From: an uncultured Nitrospiraceae bacterium
GTDB taxonomy: Bacteria; Nitrospirota; Thermodesulfovibrionia; Thermodesulfovibrionales; SM23-35
Length of the DNA: 64,000 nt
NCBI GenBank assembly: GCA_963727775.1
Contig: CAVSHB010000004.1
Coordinates: 128,001 to 192,000 of the forward strand
Direction of reading: 5' to 3'
Shown: piece by piece, positions 47,519-61,381 of the stretch
Position numbering within the stretch: position 1 is the stretch's first letter
How the letters are laid out: each line of letters begins with the position of its first letter
Program-made: the position numbers and the translations under genes
Notes under the pieces: generated by a model
Told to the model about the DNA's origin: nothing
Seen by the model: the letters and a program-made list of their open reading frames with translations, nothing else
The model's database searches: none

Positions 47519-49079
47519 TTATGTAGAGTTCCCCGTTATGTGAAGTAGTAACCTTAACTCCTCATTAAATAAGTATTCTGCCAAAATTTACTCCACATAA
47601 TAATAAGTTGATAATAGATATACTCCTCACTGAAATATCTAAATTAATGAGGAGGTGCATATGGTTGTGTCTCAAGAGCAAAAGGAATGTATCTGCGTTG
47701 GGGCGTACCAATCGAAGCTGCTCAGTGAGTATCTGGATTTCTTGTTCAAGCATCGGGGCATTTCAGAAAAGACCATCCGTTTTCGAAGGAATGATGTTGG
47801 GCCTTTTCTGAGATCACTGAGACTACAAAATGATTCGGAAGATATCGGGAAGATATCAGGAAAGGAGATTCACGATTACGTTATCAAGACGGCTAAACAC
47901 ATGAACCGTCCAAGTCAAAAACATGTTGTTACATCAATTCGAAGCTTCTTAAAGTTTTGCCATTTCAAAGGATATGTCCATCAAAACCTTACAGACGCTG
48001 TCCCAGTTATTGTAACCCCCAAATTAGGGAGAGTTCCTCGCAGTATCCCATGGGAGTCTGTCGAAAAACTTCTTGATAGTACCGATCGTGAAACTCATCG
48101 TGGCAGAAGGACTTATGCAGTATTACAACTATTGGCGACATATGGGGTGCGAATAGGTCAGGTAGTAAAACTCCTGTTGCAGGACATAAACTGGCGTAAA
48201 GGCTTAATCCATATTCAGCCGAGCAAGGGCGGTAACCCTTTAACTTTCCCTCTTTACCCAAAGGTTGCAGATGCGCTGCTTGCCTATATACGGGAAACAC
48301 GTGGTAAGGCTACCTATCCAGAAGTGTTTCTTACTATTGATAACCTTATGCCTCTGAGGGCCGTTGCTCTTTCGGTCTTAATGCAGAGATTTTTCCGTAG
48401 TGCAGGTATCGCTGCGAGTGCACATGCCATACGGCATGCCTTTGCGACACGACTGATGGAACATGAAACCCCTATCAAGACGATAGCTGATTTGTTGGGG
48501 CATAAATCTATAAACACCACCTTCATCTATACAAAAGTCGATCTCAAACACCTTCGTCTTGTGGCGTGTGAATGGCTGGAGGTTTTGTCATGAAAAAACT
48601 ATCAAACGGACCATTCAGTATTTTTATTAACCAATATCTGCAGCTGCGCCGGTCACTTGGCCGTATTCTTAAAGACGCCGAGTACACCCTGAATAAATTC
48701 AATTTCTATTTAGCCCGATACTTTCCAGATGCGAAAACTGTGACGAAGCCAATGATAGTCAGCTACCTTCAAGCGGCCAAACACCTGCATGCATCTACCT
48801 TATATCTTCGGTTTATACATTTGCGCCAGTTCTGCCGGTTCCTATTTCAGCTCAACCCGGATAATTACGTTCCAGAATCAAGATTGATTAAACGAGGGCC
48901 AACTATCAGACCGCCCCATATCTATACGACTGAAGAGGCAATGAAATTGATCAGGTTGGCAAGAATGCTTAATCCTCGTGGTTCATTGCGCCCCCACACC
49001 TATAGCACATTGATTTCGCTTTTGTGGGTATCCGGCCTGCGGATTAGAGAAGCTCTGAAGCTGAATTTAGAAGACGTTT
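47519..49079 (+). mobile_element. Truncated RIT (recombinase-in-trio) element, left part
   Basis: TTATGT direct repeats (47519, 47536) and inverted ACATAA (47595); two overlapping tyrosine recombinase genes; third gene and right end absent. Confidence 0.7.
47661..48593 (+). CDS. Tyrosine recombinase (RitA-like)
   Basis: GAGGAGG RBS; catalytic R (YGVRIG), HxxRH (HAIRH), LGH and Y (FIYTK). Confidence 0.9.
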   Translation: MVVSQEQKECICVGAYQSKLLSEYLDFLFKHRGISEKTIRFRRNDVGPFLRSLRLQNDSEDIGKISGKEIHDYVIKTAKHMNRPSQKHVVTSIRSFLKFCHFKGYVHQNLTDAVPVIVTPKLGRVPRSIPWESVEKLLDSTDRETHRGRRTYAVLQLLATYGVRIGQVVKLLLQDINWRKGLIHIQPSKGGNPLTFPLYPKVADALLAYIRETRGKATYPEVFLTIDNLMPLRAVALSVLMQRFFRSAGIAASAHAIRHAFATRLMEHETPIKTIADLLGHKSINTTFIYTKVDLKHLRLVACEWLEVLS

Positions 49080-49087
49080 TGTGCTAA
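48590..49087 (+). pseudogene. Tyrosine recombinase (RitB-like), truncated by IS insertion
   Basis: ATGA overlap with ritA; PHIY...GLRIREALKL, then interrupted at 49080. Confidence 0.8.
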
Positions 49088-49164
49088 CGACCAGATAATG
49101 ATACCAAAGATTTGAGGAAATAGGGTGACACTCCAAGTTTAGGTTAACGAAAGGAGTGTCATAG

Positions 49165-50727
49165 ATGGAACCAGCAGAGGGTGTACAAAAGAGCAGTACA
49201 AAGAGGAAGTTTCCGAAGCGAAGCAATCGTTACGGGCCCGATTTCAAGCTTCAAATAGTCAAGAAGTACGTTGAGGAGAGCGTTCCCGTTCCGGTGATCC
49301 GGCAGGAATGCGGAGTGAGCAGTAATTCGGTAAGACGCTGGGTACGTGCCTATCGTCGTGAGGGCGAAGCCGGACTATCGATGAGGTACACCGGTAAGGG
49401 ACGCAGCCTTCCCACTCCAGTGAAAGAGAAGATCGTCGAAATCAAAGAAGGCAACCCGCTTTTCGGTATCAAGCGCATTTCGCAACTATTAAAGAGAGTG
49501 TTTTTCCTTTCCGCCAGCCCTGAGACGGTCCGTAAGACACTGCATGAATCATCCCTCATGACGGCCCCACCCAAGAAGCGGCAGCGTAATATTACCCGTC
49601 CCCGGTTTTTCGAGCGATCAACACCGAACCAGCTTTGGCAGACGGATATCTTTACGTTTCGACTTGGGGGCCGCTATGCGTTTCTGATCGGCTATATAGA
49701 CGATTATTCCCGCTACATAACGGGGCTTGAGCTTTTCCGCAGCCAAACGGCGCAGAATGTTATAGAGGTATACCGTCGGGCGGCCTCCGAGTACAACCCG
49801 CCCAAAGAGATGCTTACGGATAATGGGCGGCAGTATACGAGCTGGCGCGGCAACAGCCGCTTCGAACTGGAGTTAAAGAAAGACAAAATCCACCACATCA
49901 AATCGCAGCCTCACCACCCGATGACATTAGGGAAGATAGAGCGATTCTGGAAGACGATTTTTCTGGAGTTCCTAAGCCGAGCCCAGTTCGGTAGCTTTGA
50001 AGATGCGGTTGAGCGGATACGTCAGTGGGTGAAGTATTACAACCATAAAAGGCCGCATCAGGGTATCGGCGGCTTGTGTCCCGCAGACCGGTATTTTGAG
50101 ATCCAGAGCGAGCTTAGAAAGACCATCGAGCAGGGCATCCAGGACAACCTCCTTGAGATGGCGCTAAGGGGCAAGCCGCGCCTGCCGTTTTACATGGTGG
50201 GCCGGATGGAGGGGCAGTCGGTGGTGCTGCGTGCGGAAAAGGGCAGGCTGAGGTTGTCGGTTGACGCCGAAAACGACGACATTACGCAGGAAGTAGTTTA
50301 CAATCTAAATGAGAAAGGACATGACAATGGAGAAGACGGAGAAGATAAAGAGCGAGAAGAAGCGGCAGCCGATGAACTACGGGGCAATGGAAAAGTGCAA
50401 GGCGGTACTGTCTGTATGGACGGAGAGGCGCAGACCGGCGGAGATATGCCGGGAGCTGTCGATCCCCTGGATGGCGCTTGCGCACTGGCAGAGGCGGGCG
50501 ATGGAGGGGATGCTCCAGGCGCTGGAGCCGAGGGTGAGCCTGGACAGGGGGCCAGCGCTTTCTCCCCGCTTGCAGGCGTTGCTGGAGAAGAAGCGTCTGA
50601 CGCTCTTGACGAGCACAGTGCAGGGCAGACTGGAAAGGACGCTATCAAAGGCACAGGAAGCAAGGAAAGCGGAGACGCCTCAGTCGAAGGAGATAAAACC
50701 CTCCGGCGAAGCCTTGCGGAAAACTGA
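49165..50727 (+). CDS. IS481-like DDE transposase (HTH + rve) with long acidic tail
   Basis: AAGGAG RBS; WQTDI, LTDNG, GKIERF (DDE); YNHKRPHQGI. Confidence 0.88.
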   Translation: MEPAEGVQKSSTKRKFPKRSNRYGPDFKLQIVKKYVEESVPVPVIRQECGVSSNSVRRWVRAYRREGEAGLSMRYTGKGRSLPTPVKEKIVEIKEGNPLFGIKRISQLLKRVFFLSASPETVRKTLHESSLMTAPPKKRQRNITRPRFFERSTPNQLWQTDIFTFRLGGRYAFLIGYIDDYSRYITGLELFRSQTAQNVIEVYRRAASEYNPPKEMLTDNGRQYTSWRGNSRFELELKKDKIHHIKSQPHHPMTLGKIERFWKTIFLEFLSRAQFGSFEDAVERIRQWVKYYNHKRPHQGIGGLCPADRYFEIQSELRKTIEQGIQDNLLEMALRGKPRLPFYMVGRMEGQSVVLRAEKGRLRLSVDAENDDITQEVVYNLNEKGHDNGEDGEDKEREEAAADELRGNGKVQGGTVCMDGEAQTGGDMPGAVDPLDGACALAEAGDGGDAPGAGAEGEPGQGASAFSPLAGVAGEEASDALDEHSAGQTGKDAIKGTGSKESGDASVEGDKTLRRSLAEN

Positions 50728-50737
50728 GAAACCGTAG
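50321..50737 (+). CDS. HTH protein encoded in an alternative frame of the transposase tail
   Basis: GAAAGGA RBS; KCKAVLSVWTERRRPAEICRELSIPWMALAHWQRRA; similar to the next ORF (W-x-x-RA-x-x-x-M-x-x-A-x-E). Confidence 0.7.
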   Translation: MTMEKTEKIKSEKKRQPMNYGAMEKCKAVLSVWTERRRPAEICRELSIPWMALAHWQRRAMEGMLQALEPRVSLDRGPALSPRLQALLEKKRLTLLTSTVQGRLERTLSKAQEARKAETPQSKEIKPSGEALRKTEKP

Positions 50738-50881
50738 CGTAGAGACATCCTAATAATGGGGCAAGGCAGAAAACGGGTGATGGTTAAATATGGACCGAGT
50801 TGAGAAAATCGATTGTAGGGCTTCTGAGGAAGGCGATTTTCTCTCAATCCGAAGATTTTTAGTTGTTAAAGGGAGTGTGCT

Positions 50882-51268
50882 ATGAGCGACTCAAAGGATA
50901 AGGAGCGTGCCCGCCAAAGAGCAGCGGTGGTGTTTGCCGTGCGCAGCGGCCAGATAACAGCCGAGGAGGGTGCGCGCCGACTGGGCGTGTCCCGCAAGAC
51001 CTACTACGAATGGGAAAGCCGGGCATTACAGGCGATGACAGAAGCCATGGAAAACAAATCTGCCGGCAGACCGAACATGCCGCAGGACGAGGAGAAGCAG
51101 CGTTTACAGGAGGAGGTTACCGAACTCCGGAAGAAGTTGTTTGTCGCTGAAAAGACGGTAGAAGTGCGGGATATGTTGCATGCGTATGAGTTGCAGAATG
51201 CCGGTGATAAGAAAAGCGTCCCGACAAATCGGGAGGAAAAAAAACGAAAGCAAAGGAAGAAACGATAA
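50882..51268 (+). CDS. HTH protein (OrfA-like)
   Basis: AAGGGAG RBS; ITAEEGARRLGVSRKTYYEW followed by a coiled coil. Confidence 0.8.
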   Translation: MSDSKDKERARQRAAVVFAVRSGQITAEEGARRLGVSRKTYYEWESRALQAMTEAMENKSAGRPNMPQDEEKQRLQEEVTELRKKLFVAEKTVEVRDMLHAYELQNAGDKKSVPTNREEKKRKQRKKR

Positions 51269-51273
51269 CTCGT

Positions 51274-52317
51274 ATGCTTGCCATGATTGACCAGATCAGG
51301 GAGAGGACCGGGATGCCCTACAGAGCGATCTGCTATGCCGTAAGACTGCCCTACCCGAGTTTTATGCGGTGGCGCATACGGCGCAAAAAAGATACGCCCT
51401 TGGTGCGGCAACCTGGTCCTCCCAAGGTCAAGCCACCGGATTTTGGCAAGATTGAGCAGGATATAGCACAGTTATCTCACGGGCACAATCGCACGCAGGG
51501 AACCGGGGCGTTATATGTTCGCTACGGATCCACCGTATCAAGGCGGAAGCTGCATACAATGGTAGCAATGGCGCGGCACGATCTCAATACCTACCATCGT
51601 CAGAATCTGCGGCGCATCCGCTGGAACGTGCCGAACGTCGCCTGGTCCATGGACCCCTGCGAATACGAACAGCGTGACGCAACTGGTGCAAAGGTATACC
51701 TGAACCAGATGCAAGATCTCGCGTCACGCTATAAGTTTAATCCCATGACGGGAGAAGTTCCCTGCGGCGAAGAGATATCCGGCTATCTTGCGGCAACCTT
51801 CAATCGGTTTGGAGCACCCCTGTTCCTAAAACGGGACAATGGAGGTAACCTCAATCATGCAGCTGTCAATGACGTGCTTGCCGATTATTTTGTCCTACCG
51901 GTGAATAGCCCGGTCCATTATCCGCCTTATAACGGTGCGATCGAAGAGGCGCAAACCGAGCTGAAAAATGGGCTTGCCGCTAAGCTCTCGTACAGGCCCT
52001 TTTGCCCACGAGAACACATAGAGGCATACGCCTCGACGGTTGAGCATGATCTTAATCACCAACCTCGTCCGTGCTTGAACGGTAACAACGCCTGCAGGGT
52101 GTACTTCATCGGAAAAAGAGCTTTTTCCAAATGGGAAAGGAGGGATGCCTATGTTTGGATAACGACCTTGCAGAGTGATATACTTTGCAGTGAAGGGGTT
52201 CAGCCCCAGGCGGCTTGGCGCATCGCCGTGGAGGCATGGCTGAACATGAAAGGCTTTATTACGATTACGATTAATGGAAAAGTGTTACCCAATTTTTTCT
52301 CATTTCGGTATCATTAA
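51274..52317 (+). CDS. Second DDE integrase-core transposase
   Basis: WSMD, QDLASRY, KRDNGG, PPYNGAIEE; stop codon inside the right inverted repeat. Confidence 0.8.
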   Translation: MLAMIDQIRERTGMPYRAICYAVRLPYPSFMRWRIRRKKDTPLVRQPGPPKVKPPDFGKIEQDIAQLSHGHNRTQGTGALYVRYGSTVSRRKLHTMVAMARHDLNTYHRQNLRRIRWNVPNVAWSMDPCEYEQRDATGAKVYLNQMQDLASRYKFNPMTGEVPCGEEISGYLAATFNRFGAPLFLKRDNGGNLNHAAVNDVLADYFVLPVNSPVHYPPYNGAIEEAQTELKNGLAAKLSYRPFCPREHIEAYASTVEHDLNHQPRPCLNGNNACRVYFIGKRAFSKWERRDAYVWITTLQSDILCSEGVQPQAAWRIAVEAWLNMKGFITITINGKVLPNFFSFRYH

Positions 52318-52758: not shown

Positions 52759-53634
52759 TTATTTATGAACTTCCTGATGATTAGTTCTTTTCTTTCTCTT
52801 TAAATGATAACCAGACCCAAGCGCTGCAAGCAGTACAACAATTATTATGACCCATTCCGTTATTGTCAGATCAGGTACTATGCTTGCAAAAAATATATAT
52901 GCCGAACCCTTGCTGATATTTTTACCTATGTTGCTTTCAGGCAACCCAACCAAGAACGTTTTTCCAACCTTGCTGATTGAAACAGACCACCCTAAACGGT
53001 CAAATGTCCTGCCCCCCGAAGCGACCAGTTTCCGCTGTTGAGCCCATTTCCCGTTGCTTCTTGAAAATACATATGCTGAACCCTGTTCGGTCCTGTTGTT
53101 GATTTTAGAGTTAGGCGCCCCGACAACTATAGTGTTTCCGTCTTTGCTGATTGAGGCGGACCATCCGAAGTGATCAATCGTTGCGCCGTCCGAAGCGACA
53201 AGTTTCTGCTGCTGGACCCATTTCCCATCGCTCCTTTCAAACACATATGCCGAACCCTGTTCGGTCCTGTTGTTGATTTTAGAGTAAGGTGATCCAATTA
53301 CTAAGGTACTGCCATCGTCGCTGGATGAAACAGACCATCCGAACCGATCAAATGAGGCTCCGTCTGAAGAAGTCAGCTTTTGCTGCTGAGTCCATTCTCC
53401 ATTTTTCCTCACAAATACATCTGCCGAACCTTGGTCGATATTGCCGTTTATATCGCCATAAGGCGTTCCAACCAATGAAGTATTCCCGGCGCCGCTGATT
53501 GATACAGACCATCCTGAACGGTCAAATGAACCTCCGTCTGAGGGAGTCAGTTTCTGCTGTTGTACAGATCCAACGGCAATCGCCTGCCCTAGCGCTAATG
53601 ACACCAAAATAAAAAAAACTGCTTTCTTAACCAT
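52759..53634 (-). CDS. FG-GAP repeat protein with IPTL-CTERM-like sorting signal
   Basis: Signal peptide; four repeats QQKLxxSDGxxFDxFGWSVSIS...GSAY; C-terminus VPDLTITEW + TM + KRKKR. Confidence 0.82.
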   Translation of the reverse strand: MVKKAVFFILVSLALGQAIAVGSVQQQKLTPSDGGSFDRSGWSVSISGAGNTSLVGTPYGDINGNIDQGSADVFVRKNGEWTQQQKLTSSDGASFDRFGWSVSSSDDGSTLVIGSPYSKINNRTEQGSAYVFERSDGKWVQQQKLVASDGATIDHFGWSASISKDGNTIVVGAPNSKINNRTEQGSAYVFSRSNGKWAQQRKLVASGGRTFDRLGWSVSISKVGKTFLVGLPESNIGKNISKGSAYIFFASIVPDLTITEWVIIIVVLLAALGSGYHLKRKKRTNHQEVHK

Positions 53635-53642
53635 TTTTCCTT

Positions 53643-54764
53643 TTATTCAAAAATCACGTAGTCCTTAATCTTACCGAGTCTTTGCCCCTTTATGCCGAGT
53701 TCTTCAAGACGCGCGATCCTCTTTTCTTTTCGCAGTTTCAAAATTCTGCTTGCCGTATCCAGACCGAGACCGGGCACTCTTAATAACACCTTTGAGTCCG
53801 ATGTGTTGATTCTGACCGGAAAATATTCCGGATGGCTGTCAGCCCATATTTCTTTGGGGTCTTTGTCCAGCCTCAGATTACCTGTTGCCTCAAGCGGAAT
53901 ATCTTCACTGTTAAAGCCGTATTTTCGGATAAGAAAATCTACCTGGTACAGGCGGTGTTCACGCATGAAAGGTCCGGCATGATTTGAAAGAAAGCGCCTC
54001 TCACCCGGGATGTCAGGATGTCCGAGGCCTTTCTGATAAGCAGAAAAATAGACCCTTTTAAAATTCAGGCGCTTATAAAGTCCGAACATGTAATGTATAA
54101 TCTCGGAGTCTTTCTCGTCGGATGCTCCGACAATAAATTGGGTAGTGCATTTGACCCTGGAAAACCTCATGCCTTTCCCTGTGAGTCTGCCGATCAGTTT
54201 CAGCGGATGCAAAATATCTTTATCGTAATCCTTTTCCCTTGAAAGGACGGAGAAATGTTCTTTGCCCGGCGTTTCGATATTGAGAGACACCGCTGTAGCC
54301 AGAGACATAGCATCTTCTACAGCTGCATCCGACGCACCGGGGATGATCTTCAAGTGTATGTACCCCCTAAAATTATGTTTGTATCTGAGAATACGGGCAG
54401 CCGTATTGATCTTGTTCATGGTGTAATCAGCATTATTGATCACAGCGGAACTCAGGAACAGGCCAAATACCTTTTTCCTTCTCTGATATTCCATGAAAAT
54501 ACGGGCGACCTCCTCAGGTTGCAGTGTACAGCGCCGCACATTCGTTTCGGAGCGGAGTGGACAATATTTGCAGTCGTTTGCACAGGCGTTGGAGAGCAAC
54601 GTCTTAAGAAGTACGGTATAGCCTCCCTGCGGAAGGGCAACCGGATAAAGCCATTTTCCGTCAGGTCCTCTCTTGCGATGTTCTTCCTTTCGGGTACCGC
54701 ATGCACAGGCCAGATCATACTGGGAATCTTCGGAAAGCAATTTTAATTTTTCGATAGTGTCCAT
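53643..54764 (-). CDS. Putative DNA modification/repair radical SAM protein with HhH
   Basis: CANDCKYC, YIHLKIIPG, TQFIVGA, RVYFSAY, REHRLYQVDFL, LRVPGLG. Confidence 0.88.
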   Translation of the reverse strand: MDTIEKLKLLSEDSQYDLACACGTRKEEHRKRGPDGKWLYPVALPQGGYTVLLKTLLSNACANDCKYCPLRSETNVRRCTLQPEEVARIFMEYQRRKKVFGLFLSSAVINNADYTMNKINTAARILRYKHNFRGYIHLKIIPGASDAAVEDAMSLATAVSLNIETPGKEHFSVLSREKDYDKDILHPLKLIGRLTGKGMRFSRVKCTTQFIVGASDEKDSEIIHYMFGLYKRLNFKRVYFSAYQKGLGHPDIPGERRFLSNHAGPFMREHRLYQVDFLIRKYGFNSEDIPLEATGNLRLDKDPKEIWADSHPEYFPVRINTSDSKVLLRVPGLGLDTASRILKLRKEKRIARLEELGIKGQRLGKIKDYVIFE

Positions 54765-55718: not shown

Positions 55719-55747
55719 TTGACAAAATTATAAAATATGCTTATATT
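55719..55747 (+). promoter_or_regulatory. Sigma70 promoter with overlapping palindrome (candidate ArsR operator)
   Basis: TTGACA-17-TATATT; AATAT-GCTT-ATATT (55734-55747) overlaps the -10. Confidence 0.6.
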
Positions 55748-55782
55748 CGAAAGTAAGAATGTATTTCAATAGGAGGAATGAC

Positions 55783-56124
55783 ATGCTTTCTATGGGTCAA
55801 AGAATAGAACTCTTGAAAATTATTGCTCATCCCGTGAGAATCCGTATCCTTGAAGAACTTTCAAAGGGTGTCAAATGCGTGAGCGATTTCGAGGAGTTCC
55901 TTGACATAAGACAACCTAATGTATCGCAGCATCTTTCGCTTCTGAGACATTACGGCATAGTGGATTACTATATGGACGGAAGGCTTAGGTGCTATTTTCT
56001 TATTAACCCGATCATACCTGATCTTCTCGAACTGCTCAGAAAGGATTACCGCGAATCACTTCCGCGTCCTGCGTGTTGTCCAATAACCAAGAAGGGCGTG
56101 TATCCGGGGAACAGGGCAAGATAA
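55783..56124 (+). CDS. ArsR/SmtB-family repressor with Cys-Cys tail
   Basis: AGGAGG RBS; AHPVRIRIL, KCVSD, QPNVSQHL; C-terminal ACCP. Confidence 0.9.
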   Translation: MLSMGQRIELLKIIAHPVRIRILEELSKGVKCVSDFEEFLDIRQPNVSQHLSLLRHYGIVDYYMDGRLRCYFLINPIIPDLLELLRKDYRESLPRPACCPITKKGVYPGNRAR

Positions 56125-56174: not shown

Positions 56175-56501
56175 ATGAAAATTGGGATTCTTATTTCAAC
56201 AGGTGACGCAGAGACGGTCTGGAATGCCTTCCGTTTTGCGAACCTCTGTCTGAACACAGACGTGACCAACGAAGTGTCGATTTTTATGCATGCAAAGGCA
56301 GTCGAATACGAAAGCTGCAACTCTGAGAAGTTCAACATCAAAGAGCTTGCAAAAATGTTTGTCCTGAGTGACGGAAAATTGCTCGCATGCGGCAAATGTT
56401 TGGGCTTCAGGGGATTAGAAGATAATGATATCTGCCGTAAGGGCAGTCAGAAAGATCTGTACGAAATGGTCACCACGAGCGACAAGCTTGTCTGCTTCTG
56501 A
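56175..56501 (+). CDS. DsrE/DsrF-like sulfur-relay protein
   Basis: MKIGILI...WNAFRFAN, LLACGKCLGFRG, SDKLVCF. Confidence 0.85.
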   Translation: MKIGILISTGDAETVWNAFRFANLCLNTDVTNEVSIFMHAKAVEYESCNSEKFNIKELAKMFVLSDGKLLACGKCLGFRGLEDNDICRKGSQKDLYEMVTTSDKLVCF

Positions 56502-56545: not shown

Positions 56546-56797
56546 TTGGTAAAAATAACAATCTATTCCAATCGACCCGCCGGAAAGCGGTGAACCAATC
56601 TCTGTGCTTTGGCCGGGAAAGTCAAAGAAAAATATCCCAAAGATGTAGAAGTGGAAACGGTCTATTCCGGTTTCCTTGGTCTTGGTCATAAAGGAGATGC
56701 CGTCAAGCCCCCTAACATAGCCGTTGACGACACAATACTTGGAGGCGAAGCCACTTTTGAAGACATTGAAAAAGCTGTTATGGGAAAACTGTCTTAG
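56546..56797 (+). CDS. Small thioredoxin-like selenoprotein (83 aa, Sec16, UxxxC)
   Basis: GGAGGT RBS, TTG start; MVKITIYSNRPAGKR-TGA(56591)-TNLCALAG continues in frame into ORF 56609-56797; cis-Pro-like PPNIAVDD; SECIS-like hairpin 56607-56627. Confidence 0.75.
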
Positions 56798-56822: not shown

Positions 56823-58559
56823 ATGAAAAGAATAATATATGCGGGAGTCCTGTTTTTAGTCTTTGTGAGTTGTGTCTCTCTGGCGCAGGCAGAAATCCAA
56901 AATGCAGACCGCGTTCGGGGCCAGATTGTCGCTGAGGCAAAAAAGGGAGGATATCAGCTCATCACACCTGAGGAACTCAAAAAGGAATATCTAAAAGATT
57001 CATCCGCGTTTCTTCTTGTAGATACAAGGCAGGAGTGGTCGTATCAGATGCAGCATATCAAGGGGTCCTTACATATTGACTTTGCTCCGACCTGGTGGAA
57101 TCAATACTCACCTATGATGCGGTCGGAGATGAAAGCCCTTCTCGGTACTGAAAAAAATAAGAAAATTGTCTTTTATTGAGACGGTTTAACGTGAGTGCGA
57201 AGTCACGGTGCGGCCAGTTTGGCTGTAAAACTTGGATATAAGAATATATACCGTTTCGCTGAGGGCCTTCCGACATGGAAAGAGATGGGATTGCCTCTTG
57301 AGGCGGGTCGCGCATCTTATGGAGCGTCCGGAGGACAGAAAGGTATTTCGACTGTTATTGGCACGGGCTTGATCCTGACACTTCTCGGAGTATTTATAGG
57401 GGGAATAGCCCTTAATCTTACTCCCTGTGTTTATCCTCTGATCCCAATTACAGCTTCCTATTTTGGCGGTAGGAGTGAAACAGGTGAACGTCAGGGATAT
57501 CTTCTTCTCCACGGCCTTCTCTATATTCTCGGGCTATCTGTCATGAATTCTGCCATTGGAGTTTCAGCAGCATTCACTGGCAGGCTCATGGGCTCATTTC
57601 TTCAGCATCCTGCTGTGCTTATTTTTGTCTCATCTGTATTGCTCCTAATGGCGCTTAACTTCTTTGGCTTATGGGAACTCCGGCTGCCAAGCTTCCTGAG
57701 TTCCGTTGTATCAAAATCCCACACCGGTTATGTCCAGTCACTCTTCATGGGACTGACACTCGGTATAATTGCTGCTCCCTGTATCGGTCCGTTTATTATA
57801 GGGCTTCTGACCATGGTTGCCCAGAGGGGTGATCCCTGGTACGGTTTTCTCATATTCTTTACTCTGAGCATCGGCCTCGGATTACCGCTATTTATTCTAT
57901 CGATATTTGCCGGAAATGTAAGCAAGCTCCCCCGATCAGGTGAATGGTTGATATGGATCAGGAATCTTTTCGGATGGATCATGCTTGCCATGGCTGTATA
58001 TTTTGTAAAACCATTGTTACCGTGGCATGATGCCGGAACTTACATGCTGGCATTAATTGCTTTGGCTTCAGGAGTTCATCTGGGCTTCGTTAGTAAGACA
58101 GGTAAAAATTTGAGAACTTTCACTATTATCAAAAGAAGCATAGGTATTCTTGTGATAGGATTATCTATCTTTCTTGCAGGCTCCGTCCTCTTACGGGGAC
58201 CAGGGGTATCCTGGCGGCCATATTCTCAAGACACGTTCTCAAAAGCGATGGCTTCAAATAAACCGATAATCATTGACTTCTATGCGGATTGGTGTACACC
58301 GTGCGGTCAGTTGGACAAAAAAACATTTCATGACAAGGAAGTTGTTAAGGAATCCGCTAAATTCAGCATGATCAAAGTTGATCTGACGAAGGAAGCTAAT
58401 CCCGATGTTCTGCAACTGTTGAAAAAATATGATGTCAAGGGTGTGCCGACGGTTATATTCCTTGATCCTCGCGGTCAGGAAATAAAGGAATTGGAGATTG
58501 TGGACTACATCCCCGGTAATGAATTTTTGCCGAGAATGAAAAAGGCATTAGGAGAATAA
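56823..58559 (+). CDS. Double-selenocysteine rhodanese-DsbD(beta)-thioredoxin fusion (578 aa)
   Basis: GGAGGT RBS and signal peptide; ORFs 56724-57179 and 57195-58559 share a frame, joined by FY-TGA(57177)-DGLT-TGA(57192)-VRS at the rhodanese CxGxxCxRS loop; then LTPCVYP, AAPCIGP and WCTPC. Confidence 0.85.
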
Positions 58560-58566
58560 CCGAGTA

Positions 58567-59277
58567 ATGAAACTAAAAAAAATAGTCGTCTTGATCGTTA
58601 TTTCCGCCTTAATCGTGGCAGTTAAGGTATTTCACCTCGACCAGTTCCTCACTCTTTCATATCTGAAGGGATCATTGGATAAGCTGAAAGCCCTCTATGA
58701 AAACCACAGGGTGCTGGTCATTGCAGGCTATTTTGTCATTTACGTTCTTACAACCTCTATTTCCTTGCCCGGAGCTTCTCCGTTAGGTATCGCTGGAGGA
58801 GCGCTGTTCGGTTTCTGGACAGCGACAATCGTGGTCTCTTTCGCAAGCTCTATCGGCGCCACACTGGCATGTTTAGTTTCCCGCTATCTACTAAGGGACT
58901 GGATACAAAGTAAATTCGGTGACAAGATTGCAAAGATCAACGAAGGTATCGAAAAAGAAGGCGCGTTCTATTTATTCACCCTGCGGTTGATTCCGGTATT
59001 CCCTTTCTGGATGATCAACCTCACTATGGGTCTGACAAAAATGTCCCTTATTAAATTCTATTGGGTATCACAGATAGGAATGCTTCCCGGAACTATGGTT
59101 TTTGTTAACGCCGGAAAGGAACTTGCAAAGATTGATTCTCTCAAGGGAATTTCCTCTCCAGGCCTGATCATTTCATTTGCACTCATCGGCATATTTCCCA
59201 TAGCGGTAAAGAAACTGGTGGCTTTATACCGTTCCAGGATGAAGAAGACCGCTGGCGATGCCGGAAATATTTCCTGA
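58567..59277 (+). CDS. TVP38/TMEM64 (VTT/DedA superfamily) membrane protein
   Basis: SLPGA, GGALFG, LRLIPVFPF, GMLPGT. Confidence 0.9.
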   Translation: MKLKKIVVLIVISALIVAVKVFHLDQFLTLSYLKGSLDKLKALYENHRVLVIAGYFVIYVLTTSISLPGASPLGIAGGALFGFWTATIVVSFASSIGATLACLVSRYLLRDWIQSKFGDKIAKINEGIEKEGAFYLFTLRLIPVFPFWMINLTMGLTKMSLIKFYWVSQIGMLPGTMVFVNAGKELAKIDSLKGISSPGLIISFALIGIFPIAVKKLVALYRSRMKKTAGDAGNIS

Positions 59278-60331: not shown

Positions 60332-61381
60332 CTACAAAATCCTGATACAGGGAGTTGGATTTGATATCGCGTTCCCAATTATTGAGGCAGTTTCCATCCC
60401 TGCAGTTTTCAATTCATTAACTAATTGGTCCGCCTGGGATTCAGGAACCGACAGGAGAAGACCCCCCGATGTCTGTGGATCAAAGAGTAATTCCGCCTCT
60501 TTCTCTGACAACTTTGTAATTATTTCCAGACGTCCTTCTGATAATTTCCTGTTTGCCTTATTGCTGCCGGTGGTTTCACCTTTACGATACATCTCAAGAG
60601 AATGAGGATAAAACGGCAGTTCATTATAGAAAAGATCTATTTGTACTCCACTTCCCGTTGCCATCTCCAATGAATGTCCAACAATGCCGAACCCCGTTAT
60701 ATCGGTACATGCATGGATGTCGAAACTCAGTGCTGTATCAAGAGCCTTTTTATTAAGGGCTGCTACGCGAGGCAGGATAACTTCCAGTTCTTTGAAGGAT
60801 AGTTTCCCCGATCTACACGCATTAAACAATACACCGGTGCCCAAAGGTTTTGTGAGGACCAAGACATCCCCTTCCTGAACTGCGCAGTTTGTCAGTATTT
60901 TATCGGGATGAACGACTCCCGTAACCGCAAGGCCGTACTTGGGCTCATTGTCATCTACAGAATGTCCGCCGGCCATAGAAGCACCGGCTTCGTTGACTTT
61001 GTCATTCCCGCCACGGAGTATTTCTTTCAAAACACTCTTGTCAAGTTTCTTGGGGGGAAACATGACGAGGTTCAAGGCAGTGAGAGGTTTGCCCCCCATG
61101 GCATAGATGTCCGAGAGAGAATTCGCTGCAGCGATTTGTCCAAACCAATACGGATCATCCACCGGCGGTGTAATAAAATCGACGGTACTGATAAAGGCCA
61201 TCTCGTCTGATAGGCGGTACACTGCCGCATCGTCACAAGTATTGAACCCGACAAGCAGGTTCGGATCGTTAGAAGCGCTTAGTGCCTTGAGTGCTTCCGC
61301 CAGATCTGACGGACCTATTTTAGCTGCTCAGCCGCATGTCCGGGAGAGTCCTGTAAGAGTTCTTTTCTTGAAGAGACGCAT
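60332..61381 (-). CDS. selD: Selenide, water dikinase, selenocysteine-containing (349 aa, Sec18)
   Basis: ATG 61381; CG-TGA(61330-61328)-AAK; DDAAVY, DFITP, NSLSDIYAMGG, GGHS, TDITGFG, DPQTSGGLL; SECIS-like hairpin 61296-61313. Confidence 0.93.

Follow-up and report, generated by a model that had tools for sequence, protein, structure and literature searches.

How is a bacterial gene with two in-frame TGA codons 15 nt apart read, and what does its product do? These questions are raised by positions 56823–58559 (+ strand) of a 64,000-nt stretch of DNA from an uncultured Nitrospiraceae bacterium (the window). An initial annotation, made from the sequence alone, had noted here two same-frame ORFs split by TGA-GAC-GGT-TTA-ACG-TGA, and had proposed that read-through restores an exported rhodanese fused to DsbD domains. 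The arrangement was confirmed: once TGA is taken as selenocysteine (Sec, U), sequence and translation give a single frame of 578 codons, interrupted solely by TGA 57177–57179 (U119) and TGA 57192–57194 (U124), with GAC-GGT-TTA-ACG (DGLT) between them. Translation table 11 splits this frame into a first ORF ending at 57179 and a second beginning at GTG 57195.

The tsoB reading frame and its two UGA codons

The gene is tsoB, a member of the already catalogued TsoB family (named in 2025). Its product matches the TsoB model NF045694 with 838.6 bits (cut-off 805) over residues 3–575, corresponding to profile positions 2–571 of 572, and scores 826.4 bits when the stops are left as stops. Since TsoB is already named and curated, the novelty implied by the initial annotation does not hold. 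A literature search on TsoB and the other Tso names found one review alone, from 2026 (PMC13188914); there, TsoB stands after the header 'Predicted with high confidence' as a UxxxxU protein with 2 Sec, Haft & Tolstoy 2025 (mSystems 10:e0141724) is cited for it, and a Tso 'three selenoprotein operon' is mentioned. The window copy shares with this family the full-length match above the cut-off, the UxxxxU spacing, the two predicted Sec and the domain order. It differs from TsoB elsewhere in belonging to a Nitrospirota-type branch with the loop U-DGLT-U-VRSHG and a cleavable-looking signal; its nearest homologs, at 75% and 82% identity, belong to Nitrospirota, and identity to the Desulfobacterota copies is ~50%.

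The predicted product is a 578-aa inner-membrane fusion of a rhodanese with the β and γ domains of DsbD. A hydropathy scan gave an N-terminal hydrophobic signal (residues 4–22; the N-termini of the homologs are hydrophobic too) and 8 membrane segments, and the putative export signal (56823–56891) reads as having either a cleavage site between AQA and E or a weak lipobox at C17. Read-through does restore a rhodanese domain (56964–57284; residues 48–154; PF00581, 55.5 bits), whose motifs VDTRQ.W and RS are invariant in the TsoB alignment. The β domain (57354–58193; 8 predicted membrane segments; PF02683, 154 bits; Pfam DsbD_TM match at residues 184–398) contains C202 (57426–57428) and C320 (57780–57782). 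It is followed by the γ thioredoxin domain (58224–58529) with WCTPC at 58290–58304, where thioredoxin-like Pfam domains cover residues ~468–569 and the best PDB matches, by sequence and by fold, are DsbD-γ. The only cysteines of the protein are C17, C202, C320, C491 and C494, and the last four are invariant across 20 aligned sequences, so that the β pair and the WCTPC motif are intact, as had been stated. With 8 membrane segments, the rhodanese and γ should lie on the same side of the membrane, and these features suggest that the idea of an exported protein with its own electron conduit is sound. The β domain with TPC and APC cysteines, the 8 membrane segments and the γ domain with WCxxC are as in DsbD of the E. 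coli type and ScsB; unlike these proteins, however, TsoB lacks the Ig-like α domain (no match to PF11412) and carries the two-Sec rhodanese instead, and it scores 235.7 bits against the DsbD model PRK00293, below 330.

When homologs were aligned for Cys/Sec interchange, as the initial annotation had suggested, TGA proved recurrent at both sites. Seven of 79 genome loci carry the rhodanese fusion, and all seven have TGA at both sites. In metagenomes, at least 119 loci were listed, and 118 of these 119 have TGA/TGA and one TGA/TGC; the search pattern allowed TGA, TGC or TGT at both sites but fixed the flanking residues, so that divergent Cys forms would be missed. An HMM search free of this pattern bias was run on 401 genomes from another phylum and placed TsoB above the cut-off in 26 of them, where 30 of the 31 matches listed have two TGA and the 31st spans the DsbD part alone; in its own phylum, TsoB exceeded the cut-off in 1 of 301 sampled genomes, i.e., in this genome alone. 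Cysteine occurs at the aligned sites in P0002, a natural full-length fusion with C-AGPD-C at the Sec positions (913 bits to the TsoB model), and in a standalone paralog encoded in this genome, whose C-GFTK-C aligns to the Sec positions of TsoB. Two chance nonsense mutations are indeed unlikely in view of this conservation, and TsoB is predicted, with near certainty, to hold two Sec in one fusion protein. The single TGA/TGC locus (L111:184-243, – strand) is the sole U/C form seen; it lies on a short contig and could be an error.

If the two TGAs were instead real stops, the locus would be a pseudogene or a split gene, with a β–γ product started at the GTG past the second TGA. The databases seem to speak for this, as 51 of 52 database matches are pieces of 446–461 aa, many of them labelled DsbD, and the 3 of these 51 short pieces that were inspected begin past both UGAs. 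However, the TGAs are kept across phyla at Cys-aligned columns, the SECIS described below shows covariation, and the codon after UGA2 is GTC, which is no start, in 101 of 119 listed loci. We therefore regard the short pieces as gene-caller artefacts and have rejected both a pseudogene or split gene, which is extremely improbable, and re-initiation at the GTG.

The genome encodes SelA, SelB and SelD and has a tRNA-Sec. The tRNA-Sec gene (C3:290654-290751) has a neighbour that is, as we take it, integrase-like, and may thus be an integration site. Two further tRNAs with a tRNA-Sec fold and a GCA anticodon lie on either side of a second selB copy at C1:1561763-1566859 (– strand), next to two multiheme cytochrome genes. 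This matches the selC* tRNA-Cys/selB* arrangement of PMC5389517, which, in the portion available, assigns selC* to Nitrospirae and selB* to Syntrophobacterales and Desulfobacterales. As readers of the tsoB UGAs, these two selC*-type tRNAs were rejected on account of their anticodon.

Two hairpins and the decoding of two UGAs

Of 127 segments of 60 nt, we aligned 120 distinct ones, leaving out duplicates, short segments and two that seemed frameshifted, and RNAalifold predicted two hairpins from this alignment. The two-helix structure has 94.9% pairing against 22–54% in slid controls, and two-sided changes in 54 of its cells where shuffles give 11.7, although these controls either take no account of relatedness or are biased towards the structure that was chosen. 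In single folds, a longer alternative stem joined the bases just past UGA1 to the 5' arm of hairpin 2; the consensus fold lacked it.

Hairpin 2 (57209–57227, + strand, –9.4 kcal/mol) has its loop 21–22 nt past UGA2 and 36–37 nt past UGA1. It is 99.6% paired, with synonymous two-sided changes at two pairs (G-C/A-U/C-G and C-G/U-A), and all 29 distinct HMM-selected segments retain it. The bacterial SECIS model, as given in the Fig. 2 legend of PMC13188914, has a loop of 3–9 nt with G in one of the first two places, a stem of 4–16 bp, a spacing of 16–37 nt and an energy of at most –7.5 kcal/mol. Hairpin 2 agrees with every element of this model in the window and in 115 of 119 listed homologs, and its identification as a SECIS is well supported.

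Hairpin 1 (57190–57207, + strand, –5.7 kcal/mol) begins ~11 nt past UGA1, contains UGA2 in its 5' stem, and is a candidate SECIS for UGA1. Over the 120 sequences, 90.3% of its cells are paired, with two-sided changes at one pair, and its core pairs are present in 29 of 29 HMM-selected segments; the stem is partly fixed by the search pattern and by the encoded protein. Its geometry accords with the SECIS model in 115 of 119 listed loci and its energy in 60 of 119; the window copy has a shifted register and, at –5.7 kcal/mol, misses the energy limit. In our assessment, hairpin 1 is the weaker of the two and has moderate support as a candidate SECIS for UGA1.

Does each UGA then have its own hairpin? 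A single SECIS, hairpin 2, might serve both codons, with hairpin 1 as a by-product or a modulator. The loop of hairpin 2 lies 36–37 nt past UGA1 in 118 of 119 listed loci, which is just inside the 16–37 nt range, and the weak energies of hairpin 1, at –7.5 kcal/mol or better in just 60 of 119 listed loci and –5.7 kcal/mol here, point in the same direction. So do L111, where UGA is followed by Cys and hairpin 2 is kept without hairpin 1, and two loci (L098 and L141) whose hairpin 1 falls outside the model geometry. On the other hand, the hairpin 1 codons show strong synonymous bias (GTC 85% against a background of 27%, GAC 94 against 44, TCG 76 against 12), the hairpin has a z of –1.33 against synonymous shuffles where control windows gave –0.15 and +0.10, and one of its pairs flips from C-G to G-C in 10 sequences. 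A weak folding energy is also less telling in this genome, whose other probable SECIS reach just –5.0 to –8.6 kcal/mol with loops 20–24 nt from the UGA. These comparators are the few recognisable cases from a motif-plus-hairpin selenoproteome scan, which was noisy (206 candidates). We give tandem SECIS hairpins slightly better than an even chance, and decoding by hairpin 2 on its own a chance a little short of even. If the tandem reading is true, the codon that is read second belongs to the signal for reading the first. Our literature search listed no bacterial study of such nested decoding, which may nevertheless already stand in the original TsoB paper.

Origin of the fusion and its neighbouring genes

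The initial annotation had described the rhodanese as standing in place of the DsbD α domain, and two observations agree with this. The closest non-fused relatives carry at their N-terminus an α-type domain with Q-x-C-x4-C. In a β–γ tree of 43 rows, built from a hand-picked subset of loci and midpoint-rooted, the 17 TsoB rows make up one side of a branch (84/68). They join an alpha-bearing DsbD of the Desulfobacteraceae at 100/99, and further alpha-bearing rows surround this group; this nesting of TsoB among alpha-bearing DsbDs supports the swap. The Cys/Cys protein P0002 lies within the Sec group of the tree, which suggests a reversion from Sec to Cys.

With regard to the claim that both UGAs fall exactly at the Cys positions of the CxGxxCxRS loop, U119 does align to the catalytic Cys of solved rhodaneses, but U124 sits in a two-residue insertion of the loop relative to them. 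A single-sequence structure model had a pLDDT of 42.7, and a model from 20 sequences, with U modelled as C, was used instead (pLDDT 73.8; pTM 0.49; domain arrangement unreliable). In this model, a strand (114–118) leads into the loop with both U (119–125) and a helix (126–136), and a linker (163–180) is of low confidence, as expected of a flexible tether; the best structure matches of the TsoB domains were DsbD-γ and a rhodanese. The periplasmic single-domain rhodanese PspE, with which we would place Sud, resembles TsoB in its fold, its export and the position of its first redox residue at the catalytic site. TsoB departs from such rhodaneses in a loop longer by two residues, a second redox residue, Sec at both places, and a covalent tie to a membrane electron conduit; the GlpE model scored far below its cut-off on TsoB. 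Closer at hand is the standalone exported paralog (C1:1539241-1539738), which belongs to the TsoB rhodanese subfamily, scoring 111.5 bits against the N-terminal stretch of the TsoB profile, and has a signal-like N-terminus, but is unfused and has Cys in its CGFTKC loop. It lies in a run of genes (C1:1538653-1541764, + strand) for a MauE/DoxX protein, the C-x4-C rhodanese, an HGD-D protein and a BadF/BcrA-type ATPase. This is a second case of a TsoB-type rhodanese next to a membrane redox protein; the HGD-D protein and the ATPase presumably resemble a double-cubane protein and its activator.

On the + strand of the window, genes for an ArsR regulator (from 55759), a DsrE-like protein (from 56175), a small TGA-containing ORF, tsoB, a DedA/VTT protein, a DnaJ-domain protein and a methyltransferase follow one another with short gaps. 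A sigma-70-like promoter candidate (TTGACA-17-TATATT, 55719–55747, the best site with 11/12 matches) precedes the ArsR gene, though promoter-like sites in the region number 12 against 11.5 in shuffles, and terminator counts likewise show no excess. The regulator (55759–56124; probable start ATG 55783) is a general ArsR/SmtB member with a C-terminal CC pair (NF033788, 68.9 bits, cut-off 55) and scores 31.7 bits against TsoR NF045707 (cut-off 115). The DsrE/DsrF-like gene (56175–56501) matches PF02635 with 43.1 bits (cut-off 22.7), and the DedA/VTT membrane protein gene (58567–59277) begins 7 nt past tsoB (PF09335, 90.1 bits).

The small ORF (56546–56797, + strand) encodes 83 aa with NRPAGKR-U-TNLC (U-x3-C), the in-frame TGA being at 56591–56593. 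It scores 26.1 bits against TsoC NF045708, whose cut-off is 45; this model had no match in the genome search, and the gene slips under the current cut-off; a profile–profile comparison nevertheless gave a match to TsoC of 96.4% over 80 columns. The TGA is kept in 6 of 7 homologs, the seventh (L009) being frameshifted with ambiguous bases. A SECIS-like hairpin (56607–56627, 7-bp stem, loop G at +24 from U, –5.0 kcal/mol) has the same fold in 7 of 7 copies, and the gene occupies the position that TsoC has in L008 and L098. Judged by its sequence, the ORF is a divergent, previously unannotated TsoC homolog. A thioredoxin fold would, if true, make TsoC a cytoplasmic donor; Thioredoxin_3 matched 2 of 13 members (E 0.0055) below its cut-off, and no meaningful PDB match was found.

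The window operon is like the TsoB system in having ArsR at its head and a small, TsoC-like predicted selenoprotein; it differs from the Tso operon in a regulator below the TsoR cut-off, in a TsoC-like gene that is below the TsoC cut-off and lies upstream, and in the added DsrE. TsoA (NF045695), TsoX and TsoY models had no match in the genome, in a search run without a positive control, and no gene of TsoA size lies between the ArsR gene and tsoB; from the lack of TsoA matches we take this to be a TsoA-less variant. In a survey of 126 homologous loci, 48 extended 1.8 kb or more upstream and 41 reached 1.2 kb or more beyond the gene, many loci ending before a neighbour could appear; TsoC was found near tsoB at 50, TsoA at 36, TsoR at 34, DedA at 12 and DsrE at 7, and what we take to be a TauE-like gene at 3; ArsR-rhodanese matches lay near 27, which includes cross-matches among the ArsR queries. 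The counts come from targeted searches, ORF clustering having been swamped by shadow frames.

Further downstream, selD (60332–61381, – strand) itself encodes a selenoprotein (TGA 61330–61328, CG-U-AAK; TIGR00476, 376.8 bits read through, cut-off 125) and carries a SECIS-like hairpin. The table-11 ORF call drops its first 53 codons, and L105 and L141 have selD in the matching position downstream of tsoB. Upstream, 52759–54764 (– strand) holds genes for two proteins: one with FG-GAP repeats, a signal-like segment at its N-terminus and a hydrophobic one at its C-terminus, and a radical SAM protein that resembles TIGR03916, below its cut-off. A pair of presumed tyrosine-recombinase genes followed by transposase-like genes, as we read their translations, makes 47655–52317 a probable mobile element, 4 kb upstream.

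Possible functions of the two-selenium loop

In the DsbD relay, a cytoplasmic thioredoxin-type donor reduces the β cysteines, which reduce the γ cysteines outside. In TsoB, electrons would pass from such a donor to C202/C320 and on to C491/C494, and γ would then re-reduce the rhodanese loop, which is probably the outer end of the relay. Sec119 would act as the nucleophile on sulfane sulfur, whether in polysulfide, thiosulfate or a persulfide, or on a selenium analogue; Sec124 would then resolve the adduct, so that the product departs reduced and the loop stays behind in an oxidised state, as Se-Se or as a mixed species, until γ recharges it. The outcome would be an ArsR-controlled sulfane-sulfur reductase or detoxifier in the envelope of a dissimilatory sulfur metaboliser. 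Diselenides are usually far more reducing than DsbD-γ, and a stable diselenide could therefore be a dead end except in a strained loop, which may count against the wording 'diselenide enzyme' in the initial annotation.

The sulfur context consists of the DsrE gene adjoining the TsoC-like/tsoB run, of dsrA in the genome and, around homologs, of the ArsR-rhodanese matches and the TauE-like gene counted above, and the accessible part of PMC5403849 offers a precedent in PspE, a periplasmic rhodanese that acts with DsbC. Against sulfane sulfur speaks that neighbours other than TsoA, TsoC and ArsR vary, DsrE being beside just 7 of 126 loci, and that the genome has no detectable DsbD-α, which fits a housekeeping role equally. 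That the substrate is sulfane sulfur or its selenium analogue, attacked by Sec119 and resolved by Sec124, is the reading we favour, though its chance is a little short of even; the full picture, in which tandem SECIS hairpins decode a DsbD with a γ-recharged, catalytic two-selenium rhodanese reducing envelope sulfane sulfur, is a tentative one and rather unlikely to hold in its entirety.

The housekeeping role would be that of a general substitute for DsbD-α, with U-x4-U as a dithiol-like adaptor to exported DsbC/DsbG-type or other envelope proteins and no sulfur transfer. In this genome, tsoB encodes the only three-domain DsbD-type conduit found; it is the only long DsbD match, next to a CcdA-sized protein, and PF11412 (DsbD_N) is absent from the 96.8% complete genome while three control genomes match. 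Moreover, the replaced α domains share the C-x4-C spacing in 21 of 22 tree rows, and two DsbC-like UxxC selenoproteins with signal-like N-termini could be clients. A general role is harder to reconcile with another long DsbD-like frame in 2 of 4 TsoB genomes checked, with the patchy occurrence of tsoB (26 of 401 and 1 of 301 genomes), with its place behind ArsR in a dedicated operon, and with the invariant rhodanese motifs VDTRQ.W and RS; we consider it unlikely, though a serious candidate. The two DsbC-like proteins (DPE-U-PYC) and a thioredoxin-like U-AG-C protein are encoded at C1:447925 (+), C1:1193287 (–) and C2:286556 (–), each with a SECIS-like hairpin.

Slightly less likely again is a role in metal or metalloid handling, where the selenolates would bind or reduce As, Hg, Cu or Se species and the DsbD part would keep them reduced. 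For this speak the ArsR/SmtB regulator (C-terminal CC pair) at the head of the operon and the methyltransferase genes found close to some tsoB copies; in addition, one homologous locus (L014) has genes that we take, from their sequences, to be ACR3-like and ArsM-like. The rhodanese/Cdc25 fold also includes the ACR2 arsenate reductases. Yet the Cdc25/ACR2 motif is C-x5-R and the TsoB loop is U-x6-R, ArsR-family members sense sulfur species too (BigR is among the weak matches of the window regulator), and arsenic-type genes were seen near few loci, without a systematic count.

As a discovery, the locus adds little, since an NCBI model already names TsoB, even if most of the database copies returned are truncated and mislabelled as plain DsbD. 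Its TsoA-less Nitrospirota operon narrows the conserved core to a regulator, a TsoC-type protein and TsoB. TsoB itself is a compact system for studying how a bacterial ribosome reads two UGAs in such close succession, and for testing whether a two-selenium active site outside the cytoplasm can be turned over by a thiol relay.
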